From positions 1 to 45,953 of the forward strand of contig CANRBR010000003.1 in assembly GCA_947628915.1 (NCBI GenBank): DNA of 45,953 bases, written 5' to 3'. Made by a program: the position numbers and the translations under genes. This DNA is from an uncultured Bacilli bacterium. GTDB lineage: Bacteria; Bacillota_I; Bacilli_A; RF39; UBA660. The notes beneath the pieces were generated by a model. That model saw nothing but the letters and a program-made list of their open reading frames with translations. It ran no database searches and was not told the origin of the DNA. The stretch's first letter is position 1. Each line of letters opens with the position of its first letter. This document shows positions 1,069 through 34,195 of the stretch, in pieces.

Positions 1069-1092
1069 AAAAAAAGAGTTTCCTCTTTTTTT
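1069..1092. terminator. Intrinsic terminator, symmetric A7/T7 flanks
   Basis: AAAAAAAGAG-TTTC-CTCTTTTTTT. The loop reads GAAA on the minus strand. Confidence 0.7.
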
Positions 1093-1112
1093 CGTGAATA
1101 CTGCGAATATTC
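1069..1112 (-). ncRNA. Candidate small RNA antisense to the sigG 5' coding region
   Basis: 1093-1110 (CGTGAATACTGCGAATAT) is identical to 32127-32144 in sigG. On the minus strand it is preceded by GTTTA-N17-CATAATA and followed by the hairpin AAGAG-GAAA-CTCTT plus a T tract. Confidence 0.5.
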
Positions 1113-1116
1113 ATTA

Positions 1117-1145
1117 TATTATGATACATTTAATTAAATTTAAAC
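1117..1145 (-). promoter_or_regulatory. SigG/SigF-type promoter candidate
   Basis: Minus strand GTTTA (1145-1141), 17 nt, CATAATA (1123-1117). Resembles the B. subtilis forespore sigma consensus. Confidence 0.4.
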
Positions 1146-1202: not shown

Positions 1203-1994
1203 ATGAATACATTAAAAATAGAAAATTTAACTGTATCAGTTGATAATAAAATAATATTAAAAGACTTTAATCTAACTATAAATAGTGGTGAGATACACGT
1301 ACTTATGGGTGTGAATGGAATAGGTAAAAGTACTCTTACTAAAGTTATAATGGGAGATCCTACTTATAAGATAGAAGAAGGTAATATATATTATAACGAT
1401 ATATTATTAAATAATATGAGTGTAGATGAAAGAAGTAGACTAGGTATATTTTTAGGTATGCAACTACCTTTAGAAATAGAAGGGGTAACAAACGCAGACT
1501 TTTTAAGAAGTGCCTTAAGTATTAGAGAAAAAGAGTCTTTTAAATTATTTGATTTTATAAAAGAGTTAGATAAAAATGTAGAACTTTTGGATATGGATAA
1601 ATCTATGATACATAGAGGAATAAATCAAGGATTTAGTGGTGGGGAAAGAAAGAAAAACGAAATACTTCAGATGTATATGTTAAAGCCTAGCCTTGTAATG
1701 CTTGATGAAATAGATTCAGGACTAGATGTCGATAGCCTTAAAGTAATAGGAGATTCTATATATGAATACTATAAAAAATATAATCCCGGAATGATTTTAA
1801 TAACTCACTATGAAAGACTTTTAGACTATGTAAAACCTACACACGTACATATAATAAATAATGGTAAGATAGAGAGGTCTGGAGATGTATCTTTAGTTAA
1901 AGAAATAGAGGAAAACGGGTTTAAAAATATAAGTTCAAAAAAATTTGTTTCTACTAGTGAATGTATTATAAAGGAAAAATTAAAAAATGAATAA
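1203..1994 (+). CDS. sufC: Fe-S cluster assembly ATPase SufC
   Basis: Walker A GVNGIGKST, GFSGGERKKNEILQM, LDEIDSGLDVD, ITHYERLL. Confidence 0.97.
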   Translation: MNTLKIENLTVSVDNKIILKDFNLTINSGEIHVLMGVNGIGKSTLTKVIMGDPTYKIEEGNIYYNDILLNNMSVDERSRLGIFLGMQLPLEIEGVTNADFLRSALSIREKESFKLFDFIKELDKNVELLDMDKSMIHRGINQGFSGGERKKNEILQMYMLKPSLVMLDEIDSGLDVDSLKVIGDSIYEYYKKYNPGMILITHYERLLDYVKPTHVHIINNGKIERSGDVSLVKEIEENGFKNISSKKFVSTSECIIKEKLKNE

Positions 1995-5237: not shown

Positions 5238-6980
5238 ATGTCAGTAATAAAGTTAATGGATGAGATATTATCAAATAAAATAGCTGCAGGTGAGGTAGTT
5301 GAGAGATGTTCATCTGTTGTAAAAGAATTAGTTGAAAACAGTATAGATGCTAAAAGCGATGAAATTAAAGTAGATTTGATTGAATCTGGTATTAAAGAAA
5401 TAAGAATAACTGATAATGGATGTGGGATGGATAAAAGCGATGCGGTTATGGCATTTAATAGACATGCGACAAGTAAAATAATTGATGAGGATGATTTATA
5501 CCACATACATACCTTAGGTTTTAGAGGAGAGGCCCTAGCCTCTATTGCATCTGTTTCTAAAGTAGATTTATATACATCTTTAGGAGATGTTGGAACTCAT
5601 GTAAGAATAGAGGGCGGTAAAGTAATTGAAGTAGATAATAGTGATGCAAGAAGCGGTACTATAATAAGTGTTAAAGAGTTGTTCTATAATACTCCAGCCC
5701 GTTTAAAACACTTAAAAAGTTTATATACTGAACTATCTAATATAATGGATTATATGAATAAAATAGCCTTATCACATCCAGATATTAGATTTATAGTAAC
5801 AAATGATTCTAAAGAGTTACTTAGAACTGATGGAAGTGGTAATCTACTTAAATGTATTAAAAATATATATGGTATAAATATTGCTAAGAAAATGATTGAG
5901 ATTAATAATGAAAATAGTGATTATAAAATAGAGGGATTCATTAGTCTACCTGAGGTTTATAGAACGAGTAGAAATAATATTATAACTATTGTAAACGGTA
6001 GAATAGTTAGAAATACTGAGTTAAATAGAACAATAAATGATTCGTACCACTCCTATAAACCTGATAATTACTATCCAATAGTAGTTTTAAATATAAGTGT
6101 GGATACTACACTGGTAGATGTTAATATTCACCCAACTAAGATGGATATAAAGTTTGGTAATATGGAAGATTTACTAAATCTCGTTAGTACTACTATAAAA
6201 GATGCGATAAATAAAAAAACATTGATACCTCATATAGAAGAGAAGCCTACATATGTAAAGAATAGTTACGAAGAGATTAAACTTGATTTTGATACACCAA
6301 CTGTAACTGACAATAATGAAGAATATGTTATAAATACTGACTTTGTAACTGAAGAAGTAGAGGTGCACGAAGATGTAAAAGAGGATACCTCAACTATGCC
6401 TTTAATGTATCCAATAGGTTCAGTATTTGGTACATATATAATATGTCAAAACGAACAAGGAATGTATATAATAGATCAACACGCTGCAAAAGAGCGTATC
6501 AATTATGAAATGGTTAAAAATAAACTAGCTCAAAAATTAAAAGAAAATATGCCTATGATGTTTCCATTAACGCTCGAATATACTACTTCGGAATATATAA
6601 TATTAAAAGAAAATTTAGACTTTTTAAGAGAACTTAATTTTGATATAGAAGAGTTTGGTATAAATTCAGTAATCGTCAAAGCACACCCGGTATGGCTTCC
6701 AGTGGGTAATGAAGATAATGCTATAAAGAAAATTATTGAACTTGTTATAAATAAAGAAAAGAATTTTGATTTAGACAAGTTCAACGACCATTTAGCAGCA
6801 ACTATGGCGTGTAAAATGTCGATTAAGGCAAATACTGCTATCACTTTAAAAGAGATGGAAAACTTAATCGACGATTTAAGAAAATGCGATAATCCATTTA
6901 ACTGCCCACATGGTAGACCAACTACTATATACTATTCTATAAGTGATTTAGAGAAGATGTTTAAAAGAAGTGGATTTTAA
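5238..6980 (+). CDS. mutL: DNA mismatch repair endonuclease MutL
   Basis: KIAAGEVVER, GFRGEALASI, DQHAAKERINYE, ACK, CPHGRP. Start revised to ATG 5238. Confidence 0.98.
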   Translation: MSVIKLMDEILSNKIAAGEVVERCSSVVKELVENSIDAKSDEIKVDLIESGIKEIRITDNGCGMDKSDAVMAFNRHATSKIIDEDDLYHIHTLGFRGEALASIASVSKVDLYTSLGDVGTHVRIEGGKVIEVDNSDARSGTIISVKELFYNTPARLKHLKSLYTELSNIMDYMNKIALSHPDIRFIVTNDSKELLRTDGSGNLLKCIKNIYGINIAKKMIEINNENSDYKIEGFISLPEVYRTSRNNIITIVNGRIVRNTELNRTINDSYHSYKPDNYYPIVVLNISVDTTLVDVNIHPTKMDIKFGNMEDLLNLVSTTIKDAINKKTLIPHIEEKPTYVKNSYEEIKLDFDTPTVTDNNEEYVINTDFVTEEVEVHEDVKEDTSTMPLMYPIGSVFGTYIICQNEQGMYIIDQHAAKERINYEMVKNKLAQKLKENMPMMFPLTLEYTTSEYIILKENLDFLRELNFDIEEFGINSVIVKAHPVWLPVGNEDNAIKKIIELVINKEKNFDLDKFNDHLAATMACKMSIKANTAITLKEMENLIDDLRKCDNPFNCPHGRPTTIYYSISDLEKMFKRSGF

Positions 6981-10049: not shown

Positions 10050-10107
10050 ATTTATATTATTTATTGTAATTGAATATAATTATGGTATAATTAGAGTAGG
10101 TGATTGA

Positions 10108-11190
10108 ATGAAAGTCATAATAAGTGCGGGAGGTACAGGAGGACATATTTATCCTGCTCTTGCTATTATAAATAAGATAAAAGAAGTAGAACCTAAATCA
10201 GAATTTTTATATATAGGCACACATAACAGAATGGAAAACGACATAGTACCTAAAAAAGGTATTCCTTTTAAACCTATAGAAATATATGGATTTAATAGAC
10301 ATAATTTACTTAAAAACTTTAAAACTATTAAGTGTTTAATTAAAGCAAAAAAAGAATGCGCAAAAATAATAAAAGAGTTTAAACCTGATATAGTTATAGG
10401 TGTTGGTGGATATGTTACAGTACCAGTTATAATGGCTGCTCATAAACTTAAAATTAAGACATTTATACACGAACAAAATAGTATTGCTGGAAAGGCAAAC
10501 ATCACACTTTCTAAATACGCAGATTTAATAGGTGTATCATTTAAAAGTAGTATGAAAGACTTTCCAAGTGAAAAGGCCATATTTACAGGTAATCCTTGCG
10601 GGGAGGACGCACTTAAAACTAGTGCATCAGATAAAAAAGAATTTAAACTATCTATAAATAAAAAACTAGTACTATTTGTAATGGGCTCACTAGGAGCATC
10701 TAAAGTAAACGAATTTTTAGTTAAATGTATGCCTAAATTTAAAAATAAGGACTATGAAATACTTTATGTAACAGGAAATAGCGATTATGATAGTATTATT
10801 AAAAATAAATTTCCAAGTAATGTTAAAGTAGTTCAATATGTAGATACACTATCAAGAGTAATGAAAGTAACAGATTTAATAGTAACACGCGCAGGAGCAT
10901 CCACATTAAGTGAGGTAATTGCCTTAGATTTACCTTCAATACTAATTCCAAGTCCATATGTACCAAACAATCATCAATATAAAAATGCACTTGACCTTGT
11001 AAATAACAATGCCGCACTTTTACTTGAAGAAAAGGATTTAGACGAAGAAAAATTAGTTAGTATGATAGATAGTGTGATTAATGATGATAAGAAACTAAAA
11101 GATATGAAAAACAACCTTAAATCATTAAAAGTAAATGACAGTGCGAAAATAATATACGATAATATTAAAAAATTAATAGACAGGAAGTAA
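10108..11190 (+). CDS. murG: Lipid II GlcNAc transferase MurG
   Basis: GGTGGHIYPA, HEQNSIAG, GSLGA, RAGASTLSE, HQYKNA. Confidence 0.98.
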   Translation: MKVIISAGGTGGHIYPALAIINKIKEVEPKSEFLYIGTHNRMENDIVPKKGIPFKPIEIYGFNRHNLLKNFKTIKCLIKAKKECAKIIKEFKPDIVIGVGGYVTVPVIMAAHKLKIKTFIHEQNSIAGKANITLSKYADLIGVSFKSSMKDFPSEKAIFTGNPCGEDALKTSASDKKEFKLSINKKLVLFVMGSLGASKVNEFLVKCMPKFKNKDYEILYVTGNSDYDSIIKNKFPSNVKVVQYVDTLSRVMKVTDLIVTRAGASTLSEVIALDLPSILIPSPYVPNNHQYKNALDLVNNNAALLLEEKDLDEEKLVSMIDSVINDDKKLKDMKNNLKSLKVNDSAKIIYDNIKKLIDRK

Positions 11191-29254: not shown

Positions 29255-30343
29255 ATGTTTGGATTAGAAATGGATCAAGTTGCTAAAATAAAAGTTATTG
29301 GAGTTGGTGGAGGTGGAAATAACGCCGTAAACCGAATGATAGAATCAGGAGTAAAAGGTGTTGAATTCATAGTTGCTAATACCGATTTACAAGTTTTAAA
29401 TGTATCTAAAGCTCCAACTAAAATACAAATAGGAGAGAATTTAACTGGTGGTAGAGGTGCTGGTGCTAAACCTGAAATAGGAAGAGAAGCTGCTCTTGAA
29501 AGTAAAAAAGAAATAGAAGAGGCTCTAGCTGGAGCTGACATGGTATTTGTTACTTGCGGTATGGGTGGAGGAACTGGTACAGGTGCTGCTCCAGTAATTG
29601 CAAATATCGCACAAGAACAAGGGGCTCTAACTGTTGGTATAGTTACTAAGCCATTCTCATTTGAAGGTAAAAAAAGAATGGAACAGGCAATAGTAGGACT
29701 TGAAGAGTTAAAGAAAAATGTAGATACGCTAATTGTTATACCAAATGATAAATTAAGAGAGATTATAGATAAGTCAACACCACTTCTAGAATCATTTAAA
29801 GAAGTAGATAACGTATTAAGAAGAGGAGTACAATCTATATCAGATTTAATAGCTGTTGCAGGACTAATTAACTTAGACTTTGCAGATGTTAAAACTGTTA
29901 TGGAAAAACGTGGTACTGCTTTAATTGGTATTGGTATAGGTGTTGGTGAAAATAGAGCAACTGAGGCTGCAGAACAAGCAATATCTAGTCCATTACTAGA
30001 GACAAGTATCGATGGTGCAACTGATGCAATAATAAATGTTACAGGTGGTAATAATTTAACGCTCTTTGAAGTAGAAGAAGCTGCAGATGTAATTAGAAAA
30101 AGTGCTAAAACTGATATGAATACAATATTCGGTGCAGTTATCAATGAAAATCTTAATGATGAGATTATTGTTACTGTAATTGCTACTGGATTTGATGATG
30201 ATAAGAAAACTCAGGAGCAATCATCAAGAGTAGAAAGTAGAGAAGATAATAATTCTAATATTAGTTTTAGAAGTACAACTGATGAAGACTCTGATGATTC
30301 TGATGATATAATACCATCATTCTTAAGAAGAAGAGGATTTTAA
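29255..30343 (+). CDS. ftsZ: Cell division protein FtsZ
   Basis: [29 protein letters not shown]-terminal IPSFLRR. Confidence 0.99.
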
Positions 30344-30348
30344 ACATT

Positions 30349-30374
30349 AAGAATAGATTTTTCTATTCTTTTTT
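30349..30374 (+). terminator. ftsZ terminator
   Basis: AAGAATAGA-TTTT-TCTATTCTT-TTTT. Confidence 0.75.
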
Positions 30375-30398
30375 AGTATAATTATATTGGTGATATAA

Positions 30399-32045
30399 AT
30401 GACTGATATAGAAATAAGTAAAAATTCAAATATGTTAAATATTAAAGATGTAGCTAGTAAGTTAAATATAAGTGAAGATAATTTAGAATATTATGGTAAA
30501 TATAAAGCAAAACTAAATATAAATATAGATAACTTAAATAATGATTTAGGTAAATTAATACTTGTAACATCTATTAATCCAACACCTTTTGGAGAAGGTA
30601 AAACAACTGTTAGTATAGGTATTAACGATGCCTTAAATAAACTTGGCAAAAAGTCAATTGTAGTATTAAGAGAACCTTCACTTGGCCCTGTATTTGGAAT
30701 TAAAGGCGGGGCAACTGGTGGTGGTTATTCTCAAGTTGTACCTATGGAAGATATTAATTTACATTTCACAGGAGATATACATGCAATAGAAGCTGCAAAT
30801 AATCTTTTATGTGCGATAATTGATAATCATATATATCAAGGAAATGAACTTGGAATAGATAAAGTCGTATTCAACAGATGCATTGACCTTAATGATAGAG
30901 CCCTAAGAAATGTCTTAATAAAGTATGATAATAATGGTTTAGAAAGACCTGATAACTATCAAATTACAGTTGCAAGCGAAATAATGGCAATACTTTGCTT
31001 GTCTAAGAATTTAGAGGATTTAAAAAGAAGAATTGGTAATATTTTAGTTGGATATACTAAAGATAATAAAATGATATTTGCTCGTGATTTAAACTGTGTT
31101 GGGGCTATAGCCTTACTTCTTAAGGACGCTATTAAACCAAACCTAGTTCAAACACTTGAAAACAATCCTGCAATAATACATGGAGGTCCATTTGCTAATA
31201 TCGCACATGGATGTAATTCAATAATCGCAACAACTCTAGGTTTGAAATTATCTGATTATGTAGTAACTGAGGCTGGATTTGGAGCTGATTTAGGTGCTGA
31301 AAAGTTTTTAGATATAAAGTGTCAAATCGCTAATTTAAAACCCAATTGTGTAGTTATAAATGCTACTTTAAGAAGTTTAAAATATAATGGTGGCGTATCT
31401 AAAGAATTAGTTAATACTCCAAATATTGATGCTTTAAAAAAAGGTATAGTAAACCTTAAAAGACATATAGAAAATATAAGTAAATATACTAAGAATATAG
31501 TAGTTGTAATAAATAGATTTGAAACTGATACTAATGATGAGATAGACTATGTAAAAGATTATGTAGAAAATATGGGATATAAGATAAGTATATGTACATC
31601 TTTTAAAGATGGAAGTAATGGCGCTATAGAAGTTGCTAAAAAAGTACTAGATGTATGTAATAATGATGCAGATTTTAAACCTTTATATAATTTTAATGAT
31701 AAAATAATAGATAAAATAAATAAAATATCTAAAGAAATATATAGAGCAGATGAAGTAATAATAAGTGATGAAATAAAAGATAAAATAAACTACTTAGAAG
31801 AAAATGGATTTGGTAATCTACCTATATGTATTGCTAAAACCCAGTATTCTTTTACAGATAATCCTAAACTTTTAGGCGCACCATTAAACTTTAATATGAC
31901 AGTTAGAGATATTAAACTATCTAGTGGTGCTGGATTTATTGTAGTATTAATGGGAAGTATTATGACTATGCCAGGCTTAGGTAAAAATAGTGCCTATTTA
32001 AATATGAATATAGATAATAGTGGTAATATAACAGGTTTATTTTAA
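30399..32045 (+). CDS. fhs: Formate--tetrahydrofolate ligase
   Basis: PTPFGEGKTT, GIKGGATGGGYSQV, HGGPFANIAHG, IMTMPGL. Confidence 0.98.
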   Translation: MTDIEISKNSNMLNIKDVASKLNISEDNLEYYGKYKAKLNINIDNLNNDLGKLILVTSINPTPFGEGKTTVSIGINDALNKLGKKSIVVLREPSLGPVFGIKGGATGGGYSQVVPMEDINLHFTGDIHAIEAANNLLCAIIDNHIYQGNELGIDKVVFNRCIDLNDRALRNVLIKYDNNGLERPDNYQITVASEIMAILCLSKNLEDLKRRIGNILVGYTKDNKMIFARDLNCVGAIALLLKDAIKPNLVQTLENNPAIIHGGPFANIAHGCNSIIATTLGLKLSDYVVTEAGFGADLGAEKFLDIKCQIANLKPNCVVINATLRSLKYNGGVSKELVNTPNIDALKKGIVNLKRHIENISKYTKNIVVVINRFETDTNDEIDYVKDYVENMGYKISICTSFKDGSNGAIEVAKKVLDVCNNDADFKPLYNFNDKIIDKINKISKEIYRADEVIISDEIKDKINYLEENGFGNLPICIAKTQYSFTDNPKLLGAPLNFNMTVRDIKLSSGAGFIVVLMGSIMTMPGLGKNSAYLNMNIDNSGNITGLF

Positions 32046-32047
32046 TT

Positions 32048-32097
32048 GTATAAATTAATCTTCTTTCACTCAATATGAAGTGAAAGGAGATTTTTTT
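32048..32097 (+). promoter_or_regulatory. sigG leader: RBS-sequestering/terminator hairpin overlapping a forespore-type promoter
   Basis: A 14-bp stem 32057-32070/32079-32092 covers AAAGGAG and runs into T7 then ATG. GTATA-N16-CTCAATA overlaps it. Confidence 0.65.
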
Positions 32098-32874
32098 ATG
32101 GCGCGTCACAAAGTTGAGATATGTGGCGTGAATACTGCGAATATAAAAGTTTTAAATAATGATGAGATGAACTCTTTATTTAAAAAATATAAAGAAGGAG
32201 ATTCATTTGCTAAAGAAGAATTGGTTAATGGTAATTTGAAACTAGTTTTAAGTATTTTAAAAAAATACAACAATAGATGTGATAATATGGATGATTTATT
32301 TCAAGTAGGTTGTATTGGACTGATTAAAGCAATAGATAACTTTGATCTTAATTTTGATGTAAAATTTTCTACATATGCAGTACCAATGATACTAGGTGAG
32401 GTAAAAAGATATTTAAGGGATAATAATAGTATTAGAATCGCTCGTAGTATTAAAGATATCGCATACCACGCTTTAATAGTTAAAGAAGAGTTAACAAACA
32501 GCTTAAATAGAGAACCTACTATAAAAGAGATTTCAGATAAACTATCTCTTAGTGAATTTGAGGTTAGTAATGCTTTAGATAGTATGAAAGAAACATTAAG
32601 TATATCAGAGCCTATTTATAACGATGGAGGAGATACTATATACTTACAAGACCAAATAGAAGATAAAAATAATAATATGAAATATATCGATGAGAAAGTT
32701 GCTTTAAAAGAGGCAATAAATTCTTTAAAAGATAAAGAAAAATATATTATAACAGAAAGATATATAATAGGTAAAACTCAAATGGAACTAGCTGAAGAAA
32801 TTGGTATATCACAGGCACAAATATCAAGAATTGAAAAAAGTGCCTTAAACAACATAAAAAATAAAATAAGTTAG
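32098..32874 (+). CDS. sigG: Forespore sporulation sigma factor SigG
   Basis: KVEICGVNT N-terminus, DDLFQVGCIGLIKAIDNFD, EPIYNDGGD, GISQAQISRIEK. Followed by ylmC. Confidence 0.93.
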   Translation: MARHKVEICGVNTANIKVLNNDEMNSLFKKYKEGDSFAKEELVNGNLKLVLSILKKYNNRCDNMDDLFQVGCIGLIKAIDNFDLNFDVKFSTYAVPMILGEVKRYLRDNNSIRIARSIKDIAYHALIVKEELTNSLNREPTIKEISDKLSLSEFEVSNALDSMKETLSISEPIYNDGGDTIYLQDQIEDKNNNMKYIDEKVALKEAINSLKDKEKYIITERYIIGKTQMELAEEIGISQAQISRIEKSALNNIKNKIS

Positions 32875-33145: not shown

Positions 33146-33178
33146 ATATTTTTGTGTTATACTTAAATTGGTGATTGA

Positions 33179-34195
33179 ATGAAAGTCTTACTATATACAG
33201 AAAATGAAAAGATGATTAGTAAATCTGGACTCGGTAAAGCCATAAAACACCAGATGAATGCCTTGAAAGACAATAATATTGAATATACAACAGATCCAAA
33301 TGATGATTATGATATAGTACATATAAACTTTTATGGTCCTAAATCTTATATGCTTGCAAAAAAAGCAAAAAAACTAGGTAAAAAAGTTATATACCATGCT
33401 CATTCTACTGAGGAGGATTTTAGAAATTCGTTTGTACTTTCCAATCAAGTTGCCCCAGCATTTAAGCAGTGGTTGATTAAGTGCTACACACTTGGAGACC
33501 ATATATTAACCCCAACTCCTTATTCAAAAAAATTATTAAAAAGTTACGGTATAAAAGTCCCAATAACTGATATAAGTAATGGTATAAATGTTAAGTTTTT
33601 CGAGAAAAATGAAGAGTTAGGTAAGAAGTTTAGAAAAGACTTTGGATATAAAGATACAGATAAAATAATAATGGGTGTAGGTTTATATATAGAAAGAAAA
33701 GGAATACTCGATTTTGTTGAACTTGCAAAAAGACTACCTGAGTATAAATTTATATGGTTTGGGTATTCACCACTTTCAGCATCTCCAGCTAAAATTAGAA
33801 AAGCAGTTAATACTAAATTAGATAATTTGTGTTTTGCTGGATATGTAGAGCCTGAGGTTTTAAGAGGTGCGTATAGTGGTTGTAATTTATATTTATTTCC
33901 AACACTTGAAGAAACTGAAGGTATTCCAATAATGGAAGCATGTGCGGCTAGAATACCTTCATTAATAAGAGATATACCTGTATTTGATGGATGGCTTAAA
34001 GATGGTGTAAATGTATATAAAGCAAAAAATTTAGATGAATTTGAAGATAAAATTAAAAAAATATTAGAAGGTAAGTTACCTGATTTAACTTTAGAAGGTT
34101 ATAAACTCGCAAAAACAAGAGATATAAAAAGAGTTGGTAGAAAACTTATCAATATATATAGAAAAGTATTAGAAGGTGATGTTCTTGATAAATGA
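33179..34195 (+). CDS. GT4 glycosyltransferase (CpoA-like glycolipid synthase)
   Basis: HAHSTEEDFRNSF, RKGILDFVELA, EETEGIPIMEA. Confidence 0.88.
   Translation: MKVLLYTENEKMISKSGLGKAIKHQMNALKDNNIEYTTDPNDDYDIVHINFYGPKSYMLAKKAKKLGKKVIYHAHSTEEDFRNSFVLSNQVAPAFKQWLIKCYTLGDHILTPTPYSKKLLKSYGIKVPITDISNGINVKFFEKNEELGKKFRKDFGYKDTDKIIMGVGLYIERKGILDFVELAKRLPEYKFIWFGYSPLSASPAKIRKAVNTKLDNLCFAGYVEPEVLRGAYSGCNLYLFPTLEETEGIPIMEACAARIPSLIRDIPVFDGWLKDGVNVYKAKNLDEFEDKIKKILEGKLPDLTLEGYKLAKTRDIKRVGRKLINIYRKVLEGDVLDK

Follow-up and report, generated by a model that had tools for sequence, protein, structure and literature searches.

Why should a short stretch of an intergenic region recur, letter for letter, inside the gene of a sporulation sigma factor? 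The question is raised by a window of 45,953 nucleotides (by which we mean the whole stretch of DNA analysed here) from an uncultured Bacilli bacterium. Its initial annotation, made from the letters alone, had drawn attention to an exact 18-mer shared by the gap upstream of sufC and the first codons of sigG, and had proposed a small RNA antisense to the sigG mRNA. One of the central questions of sporulation is what keeps SigG from acting before its time. The sequences supply here a kind of evidence that is usually obtained from compensatory mutants, as the putative RNA gene and its sigG target change together across dozens of genera, and this covariation points to RNA-level control of a key sporulation step. 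From such comparisons we hold it probable (at roughly 0.8) that a small RNA encoded in trans pairs with the sigG mRNA, and we give more tentatively, further below, a view of what the pairing would do.

The repeated 18-mer and the elements around it

The two exact copies of CGTGAATACTGCGAATAT are found at 1093-1110 and at 32127-32144, where the initial annotation had placed them, both on the plus strand and 31 kb apart in the source genome (hereafter G000; ~1.06 Mb, in an assembly 90% complete). The first copy lies within a 261-bp gap between a minus-strand ORF (633-941) and sufC (1203-1994, plus strand; NCBIfam TIGR01978). That ORF and the adjacent one on the same strand (15-548) have no NCBIfam matches and look like the halves of one broken gene. 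In the same gap, a TTCTTTATTTTTT block (1154-1166, with its equivalent in L004-L022) stands upstream of the suf −10 (TAGTATAAT) and is conserved across the genus. The second copy belongs to a coding sequence that starts at 32098 and has SigG as its best NCBIfam match (NF006071, 373 bits for a cut-off of 372), SigF scoring lower. This sigG, with a promoter-like element of its own, comes after ftsZ and a formate-tetrahydrofolate ligase gene (29255-32874 for the whole), and not after a spoIIGA-sigE pair, unlike the arrangement that the available parts of the literature give for B. subtilis and C. difficile. The genome (1.06 Mb, 90% complete) keeps SigG, SpoIIR, Gpr and ORFs reading like SpoVT and SpoVAC; SASP (PF00269), Gin/CsfB (PF10764) and Hfq (PF17209) were not found in this 90% complete assembly.

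Only these two matches to CGTGAATACTGCGAATAT occur in the window when up to three mismatches are allowed (shuffled sequences gave a mean of 0.02), and only these two in the whole assembly (1,056,540 bp, 90 contigs) when up to two are allowed; the initial annotation had named recurrence at many loci, as of a protein-binding operator, as what would speak against a pairing RNA, and the genome does not hold it. The window has a G+C content of 25.7% and contains 34 repeated 18-mers in about six unrelated families, among them one other with 7 G/C, as in CGTGAATACTGCGAATAT. Exact 18-mer repeats being not rare there, the window by itself leaves room for chance, and the significance of the pair rests therefore on comparative data. 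The other repeat with 7 G/C is found at 10099-10116 and 33170-33187, and its copy at 33170 spans the ribosome-binding site and the start codon of a glycosyltransferase gene (33179-34195).

The half-dozen unrelated repeat families, together with a second partial fragment of the sigG 5′ end in one relative (G075), are what could suggest a chance similarity or a functionless, decaying duplicate of the 5′ end of sigG. Either seems scarcely credible for an element that is conserved in 83 genomes, has a promoter and a terminator on the antisense strand, and shows substitutions matched to those of sigG, as set out below.

Read on the minus strand from 1145 down to 1066, the gap holds in succession a −35-like GTTTA (1141-1145), a 17-nt spacer, a −10-like CATAATA (1117-1123), about 7 nt, a predicted 5′ stem-loop UGAAUAUUCGCAGUAUUCA (1095-1113; UGAAUAUU-CGC-AGUAUUCA), the dinucleotide CG, and the hairpin A7GAG-GAAA-CUCU7 (1069-1092), which would form an intrinsic terminator with a 10-bp A/U-rich stem, a GAAA loop and a U-run (1066-1092). 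The promoter with its 17-nt spacer and the GAAA-loop terminator had both been described in the initial annotation, as had the perfect inverted repeat TGAATA-N7-TATTCA at 1095-1113, and all three are present. The stretch complementary to the sigG mRNA (18 nt in G000, recognised by match, RNAduplex and covariation) occupies 1093-1110, and the RNA would start at about 1111-1113, as judged from the −10 spacing alone. A 48-nt minus-strand RNA folds into two hairpins with −13.4 kcal/mol (z = −4.8), none of 200 shuffles being as good. A simple consensus scan for terminators found no site between 850 and 1300, because the stem has fewer than three G-C pairs, and the terminator was judged by folding instead. 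We propose that the minus strand at about 1066-1113 would encode a small RNA, some 45-50 nt long, whose transcription would begin at a forespore-type promoter (SigF and/or SigG) and stop at the intrinsic terminator; a minus-strand RNA of about 45 nt had been suggested before, and the orientation of promoter and terminator fits a length of about 45-50 nt in 83 genomes.

The elements of the putative promoter are conserved. In 36 aligned loci the −35 reads G-[T/A]-[T/A]-T-A, where the G and the fourth-position T are invariant, the C, the A and the A-T step of the −10 are at least 90% conserved, and the distance between the two elements is fixed; in other genera the −35 of the RNA is GTATA or GAATA. 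The promoter-like element of sigG in G000 (GTATA-N18-CAATATG, 32048-32077, plus strand) has the same architecture as that of the small RNA (GTTTA-N17-CATAATA), and the promoters of spoIIR, spoVT and spoVAC read GTATA-N18-CAATATT, GAATA-N17-CAAAATA and GAATA-N17-CATAATA, respectively, the −10 of the last being identical to that of the small RNA (spoVT and spoVAC were recognised by eye from the ORF, without a family search). We take −35 elements of the GTATA/GAATA type to be those of SigF and SigG. As a genome-wide predictor, a loose regular expression for this promoter was discarded, since it is not enriched (84 matches in the genome, about 150 in shuffles). This, and the overlap of SigF and SigG promoter specificities reported for C. 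difficile in the part of the source available (PMC7438776), is why we infer, rather than assert, that the small-RNA promoter is of the forespore type, with SigF not distinguishable from SigG.

Conservation among relatives and joint change with sigG

In total, 83 small-RNA loci were compiled, 24 in the genus (the window included) and 59 in other genera of the family, which comprises more than 200 genera and was sampled at one genome per genus, from metagenome-assembled genomes that are 62-99% complete. Within the genus the core is present in all 24 genomes, the intergenic element in 23 (it was not found in G013) and the sigG copy also in 23 (it was not found in G024). Conservation in these genomes extends from the hairpin to sufC and does not reach the DNA past the hairpin. 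The hairpin beside the core varies in sequence from species to species and always keeps its pairing and, where the strands differ, the good T-run is on the minus strand only (e.g., G024, G010, G006 and G232).

Across the family, a 17-mer scan gave matches in 102 of 200 other genera (those in G052, G079, G237, G109:C1 and G106:C4 were dismissed as chance), and a sequence-only model of promoter and core (R1), made from the 36 aligned loci (alignment A2), matched 64 of 150 other genera at E ≤ 0.01. Forty R1 matches were fetched, of which 33 have the full architecture, three are the antisense strand of sigG itself (G108, G072 and G103) and four are without a terminator (G084, G143, G179 and G085), the last seven being rejected; a pattern scan with 20 fetched regions gave 13 further loci and six palindromes in coding sequence. 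Also rejected were pattern matches in G133, G058, G144, G105 and G049, whose sigG is of the non-canonical kind described below, and a second match in G186, all of them inside coding sequence and without a terminator. Both the 17-mer scan and the core-containing R1 model bias discovery towards loci resembling the query. In G085, where SigG had no match, a 14-nt core-like stretch follows a −10-like TATAAT and has neither second arm nor terminator (L130, G085:C9:28832-29113); it may be a decayed remnant or chance. In G171 the RNA locus is found on two contigs, the copies agreeing fully, flanks included (G171:C2:141-159 and G171:C34:13718-13736; L358, L359), probably an assembly duplicate.

By a heuristic search, a 3′ hairpin accompanies 82 of the 83 loci, with 80 distinct stem-loop sequences (in G095 the hairpin lies farther away), and in 75 of the 82 the T-run is stronger on the RNA strand. 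When 70 of the loci were folded, nearly all gave a two-hairpin RNA of about 40-60 nt, the few others being without a predicted 5′ stem (G075 and G081, at the assumed start) or shortened by the end rule. Changes in the arms of the 5′ stem-loop are compensated in G139 and G075.

As to the range of the element, an order-level sample consisting almost entirely of this family gave matches at E ≤ 1e-4 in 23/119 for f1 and 0/1 for f2. In a public species collection, most full-length matches bear the title 'uncultured Bacilli bacterium', other titles being Clostridium sp., Firmicutes/Bacillota, Tenericutes, Erysipelotrichaceae and Candidatus Coprosoma, and three very low-GC contigs labelled Bacteroidales are also among them. 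These contigs (L254, L248 and L307), with 15-21% G+C and full-length matches to the RNA model of 29-38 bits, come from MAGs labelled Muribaculaceae/Paludibacteraceae, labels that are probably binning errors. Matches in other phyla cover the 18-19 nt core only and were rejected. No Rfam family reached its gathering score in the window, and a relaxed Rfam scan of 940-1210 gave only sub-threshold hits to cow-rumen-4 (17.4 bits, E = 2) and STnc40 (13.9 bits). The small RNA would, by its sequence, constitute a new family of an already known kind, that of trans base-pairing sRNAs, of use in annotating a large group of uncultured gut Bacilli with genomes of about 1 Mb that still carry sporulation genes.

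The surroundings of the locus suggest a reading of another sort. In all five other genera examined for this purpose (G159, G099, G145, G078 and G064; L372-L376) the RNA gene is divergent from sufC and, in four of the five, a HIT-family (hinT-like) gene lies on the same strand about 50-100 nt past the RNA terminator, where the element could act in cis on the downstream gene, as its 5′ leader or attenuator. G000 and its genus, however, keep the element though the downstream DNA is not conserved (matches start at query ~131-165), and hinT is absent downstream in G000, so that the linkage a leader calls for is not constant. In several loci an extended −10, TGTTATAAT, also lies past the terminator and before hinT, an alternative antiterminator is not evident, and a leader would leave the covariation with sigG unexplained. 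We consider it very unlikely and return to the RNA acting in trans.

The target of this RNA would be CDS nt 30-47 of the sigG mRNA (32127-32144, plus strand), in codons 10-16 (G V N T A N I). It is the best RNAduplex site in the genome, at −29.1 kcal/mol as against −21.4 kcal/mol for the next (a gap of 7.7). Comparison of self and cross duplex energies was also tried as a test and abandoned: its own sigG was best or tied-best for only 7 of 62 RNAs, and such energies are uninformative, the sigG targets being for the most part identical. A search for SigG N-termini was positive in 131 of 150 other genera. From genomes in which R1 gave no locus, 58 of the ~87 sigG genes were fetched (G147-G189 were left out), and 132 sigG 5′ ends were collected in all, 130 of which were parsed.

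These 5′ ends fall into two groups. A canonical target (GGC/AAC GTG AAT/GAT/AAC AC...) is present in 84 genomes, and the RNA locus was found in 73 of them, the remaining 11 being G013, G050, G067, G094, G098, G102, G106, G107, G109, G131 and G134; the other 46 genomes have a non-canonical target, and the RNA locus was found in none. At the target, the non-canonical genes encode other residues or use synonymous codons rich in A and T (G069, for instance, encodes the same peptide as GGT GTA AAT ACA GCT AAT), and the R1 matches in this group stop before the core or are without a terminator (G084 alone having been inspected directly). Synonymous positions that are kept in the 84 are free in the 46, and in a genome of 27% G+C the codons GTG and GCG are retained solely alongside the RNA, which points to selection on the nucleotides of the target codons. 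The second sigG N-terminal frame of G075 is partial (28 aa matched in a 56-aa ORF), lies 1.2 kb from sigG (G075:C74:5437-5520) and holds a target-like 17-mer with one change (5474-5490).

The locus and the target do not merely occur together; they also change together. In many genomes outside the genus the same non-reference variant stands in both loci, as in G194 (ACAGCGAGT), in G124 (ACAGCAAAT), in G042 and G096 (GCA), in G046 (AAC) and in G104 (GCAGAT). Over 62 pairs of sigG and locus, the Thr wobble (CDS nt 39) is T/T in 51, A/A in 10 and A/gap in one, and the Ala wobble (CDS nt 42) is G/G in 56 and A/A in 6. Over 73 pairs, 36 positions of sigG differ from the majority core (nt 31-45), and there the locus has the same base at 27, an A-to-G difference compatible with G·U pairing at 7, a gap at one and a mismatch at one, the alignment of G095 in this count being doubtful. 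The three states of nt 39 (T, A and, in G068, G) are each mirrored in the RNA locus, and matched changes at nt 36, 43, 44 and 45 are seen in separate genera. Between them, nt 39 and nt 42 show every one of the four possible combinations, which requires at least three events at those two sites; independent events were counted by this haplotype logic, and counts of cells overstate them because the genomes are related. Two genomes served as a blind test, as G065 and G068 had an RNA locus and no sigG match in the pattern scans, and their sigG genes, found later by protein search, carry the variants predicted from the RNA (AAC-ACA-GCA in G065 and ACG with AGT in G068).

The match is not complete. 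An indel of 1-4 nt in the middle of the duplex separates locus from sigG in 42 of the 83 loci, and the changes confined to the locus comprise nine that are G·U-compatible, 10 mismatches and two gaps, several of them strengthening the RNA's own stem (G075 and G139); from the 42 indels and the 10 mismatches it follows that perfect pairing is not required. In other genomes the RNA locus and the sigG gene either share a contig, at a distance of 15-99 kb, or belong to different contigs. One of the marks of a trans base-pairing sRNA, namely that compensatory changes preserve its complementarity to an mRNA from another locus, is found here, and so, as far as folding predicts it, is another, a terminator that would define a short transcript. 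The search in relatives which the initial annotation had advised thus finds the intergenic antisense copy retained, with substitutions that co-vary with those of sigG.

A perfect inverted repeat in a gap which is divergent from sufC, in G000 as in the five other genera, and whose arms are compensated in G139 and G075, could also be an operator in the DNA, bound by a dimeric protein that regulates either the divergent suf operon or the small promoter, with sigG holding a second binding site. Such an operator would be expected to recur across a regulon, however, and there are two copies in the genome; the additional pattern matches in other genomes are within coding sequence and have none of the surrounding architecture. 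The sigG of the genus is without the second arm (it has AATTTA in its place), the spacing of the arms differs between locus and sigG in 42 of 83 genomes, and the matched wobble changes in sigG would require a protein that co-evolves with both sites. Neither would an operator explain a terminator 2-6 nt away with a strand-biased T-run. We find it highly improbable, and a small RNA pairing with the sigG mRNA accounts better for the joint changes.

The start-proximal hairpin and the sign of regulation

Folding predicts a hairpin within the mRNA of sigG between nt 5-12 and nt 26-33 (32102-32130, plus strand), which begins 2 nt past the AUG. RNAalifold on the 84 canonical 5′ ends pairs CDS nt 5-10 with nt 28-33 (six pairs, −6.5 kcal/mol), and in the 8-bp version of the hairpin 96.3% of 670 cells are paired, the slid controls giving 13-49%. 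Only two cells have double changes (G094 and G131, TAC plus AAC), so that this nearly invariant hairpin is not proven by covariation. Its pair probability is 0.88 in canonical as against 0.01 in non-canonical sigG, and the mean MFE of the 5′ end is −13.9 as against −6.4 kcal/mol.

The target begins at nt 30/31 and overlaps the base of the stem, on the 3′ arm, by 3-4 nt only; the overlap had been noted in the initial annotation, and it stands for a hairpin that is itself predicted. Because of this overlap, pairing should open the hairpin. With nt 31-47 blocked, the predicted accessibility of +1..+13 rises from 0.25 to 0.44 (up in 78 of 84 sequences and down in one), and that of the SD changes little (0.60 to 0.65), folding of such short windows being a model-dependent prediction.

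We suggest that the 5′ stem-loop of the RNA would pair in trans with codons 11-16 of the sigG mRNA, and that the pairing would peel the start-proximal hairpin open, free the first codons for the ribosome and raise the synthesis of SigG, so that the SigF-to-SigG switch would be subject to a positive or feed-forward loop. This full reading, of a forespore sRNA that pairs with sigG and activates it by opening the hairpin, we offer tentatively, its odds being a little short of even. We lean to activation because the hairpin and the RNA co-occur, because the site is outside the initiation footprint and because the duplex is bulged in half the genera.

The same sRNA could instead repress sigG, if a duplex of 17-18 bp in codons 11-16 triggered cleavage (e.g., by RNase III) or stalled early elongation. 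Driven by SigG, the promoter would then give a negative feedback and, driven by SigF, a brake on premature SigG in place of Gin/CsfB. All the evidence for pairing applies to repression equally well, RNase III is encoded in G000, and most base-pairing sRNAs that bind inside coding regions do repress. A bulged duplex is on the other hand a poorer substrate for RNase III, and the duplex is bulged in 42 of the 83 loci; the site lies beyond the usual ribosome footprint, which makes direct occlusion of initiation unlikely, and repression alone would not account for the restriction of the start-proximal hairpin to sigG genes with the canonical target. The failure to find Gin/CsfB in G000, by a search that detected the B. 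subtilis control, would leave room for an RNA brake, and counts for little in an assembly 90% complete. In B. subtilis the expression of sigG is dampened, and its misexpression without the dampening features leads to premature SigG activity, as far as the available part of the source goes (PMC5942855), which would agree with a repressor. We judge repression by duplex-dependent cleavage to be possible, and nearly as likely as the activation that we prefer. The RNA of ~50 nt and the first ~60 nt of sigG make up a portable test system.

Comparison with known systems

The activation favoured here has a model in the enterobacteria, where DsrA, RprA and ArcZ act on the rpoS mRNA by anti-antisense activation. 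In both cases a trans sRNA would act on the mRNA of an alternative sigma factor at a target that touches one arm of an inhibitory hairpin (a predicted one in the case of sigG), and pairing is predicted to make the initiation region accessible. The rpoS hairpin, however, is in a long 5′ leader, whereas the one proposed for sigG is just inside the coding region. Here, moreover, the overlap with the stem is 3-4 nt, a stretch of 17-18 nt is almost perfectly complementary, no Hfq was found in the assembly, and activation has the standing of a proposal.

In B. subtilis, structure in the leader and in the 5′ coding sequence lowers the translation of sigG, and these features are reported to matter for when the SigF-to-SigG switch takes place (Mearls et al. 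2018, PMC5942855). The main element of that dampening is a hairpin at the RBS in the leader, and the available part of the source proposes no sRNA (PMC5942855).

The initial annotation knew of no trans sRNA that pairs with the sigG mRNA, a view which has to be revised in the light of C. difficile, where RIL-seq gave chimeras of sigG with CDIF630nc_161 (at the sigG RBS) and with SrsA (inside sigG), as reported in the available parts of two sources (PMC10267692, PMC13753753). An sRNA touching sigG is therefore not unprecedented, though for the contact with SrsA experimental validation is still needed according to the source (PMC10267692/PMC13753753). The likeness is that trans-encoded sRNAs are reported to contact the sigG mRNA in a spore former. 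Those contacts are described as Hfq-associated and as falling either on the RBS or over 150 nt past the start codon; the RNA proposed here differs from the C. difficile sRNAs (nc161 being compared by its description) in being much shorter, in its forespore-type promoter, in its site at codons 11-16 and in its covariation. The portions of the B. subtilis and C. difficile literature available to us give transcriptional, translational and RIL-seq answers, and no functionally tested sRNA on sigG was found in them, nor, in the literature seen to the same extent, any forespore sRNA that pairs with the beginning of the sigG coding sequence.

Forespore sRNAs as such are known. CsfG (the ylbH leader motif) is controlled by SigF and SigG, is conserved in spore formers and measures 136 nt, with loops that are CU-rich; it co-precipitates with Hfq, and no target of it is known, according to the parts of the sources available (PMC9147052, PMC3574147). 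It resembles the present RNA as a small RNA under forespore control, which here would follow from the inferred promoter. Identity with CsfG was considered and rejected, as the window has no Rfam match at gathering score and the relaxed hits are unrelated to CsfG.

A closer parallel in position is offered by Bvs196/S547 of Bacillus, forespore-specific and driven by SigF/SigG, which is encoded between hinT and ecsA, is 294 nt long and has spo0A and sspN-tlp as proposed targets, as far as described in the available part of the source (PMC9147052). Like the RNA gene in four of the five other genera, it has hinT for a neighbour, the likeness being one of position alone, and by this analogy the RNA/hinT neighbourhood may be an old forespore sRNA locus. 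It is tempting to go further and to imagine, in a lineage where a search did not find Gin/CsfB, a minimal forespore RNA that times the SigF-to-SigG switch, with a hairpin that keeps the sigG mRNA closed until the RNA has built up and opens it, and with the gene beside hinT as the same ancient forespore sRNA locus as Bvs196/S547. We think this extended picture unlikely as a whole; if it were true, RNA control of sigG would be wider among spore formers than is known at present.
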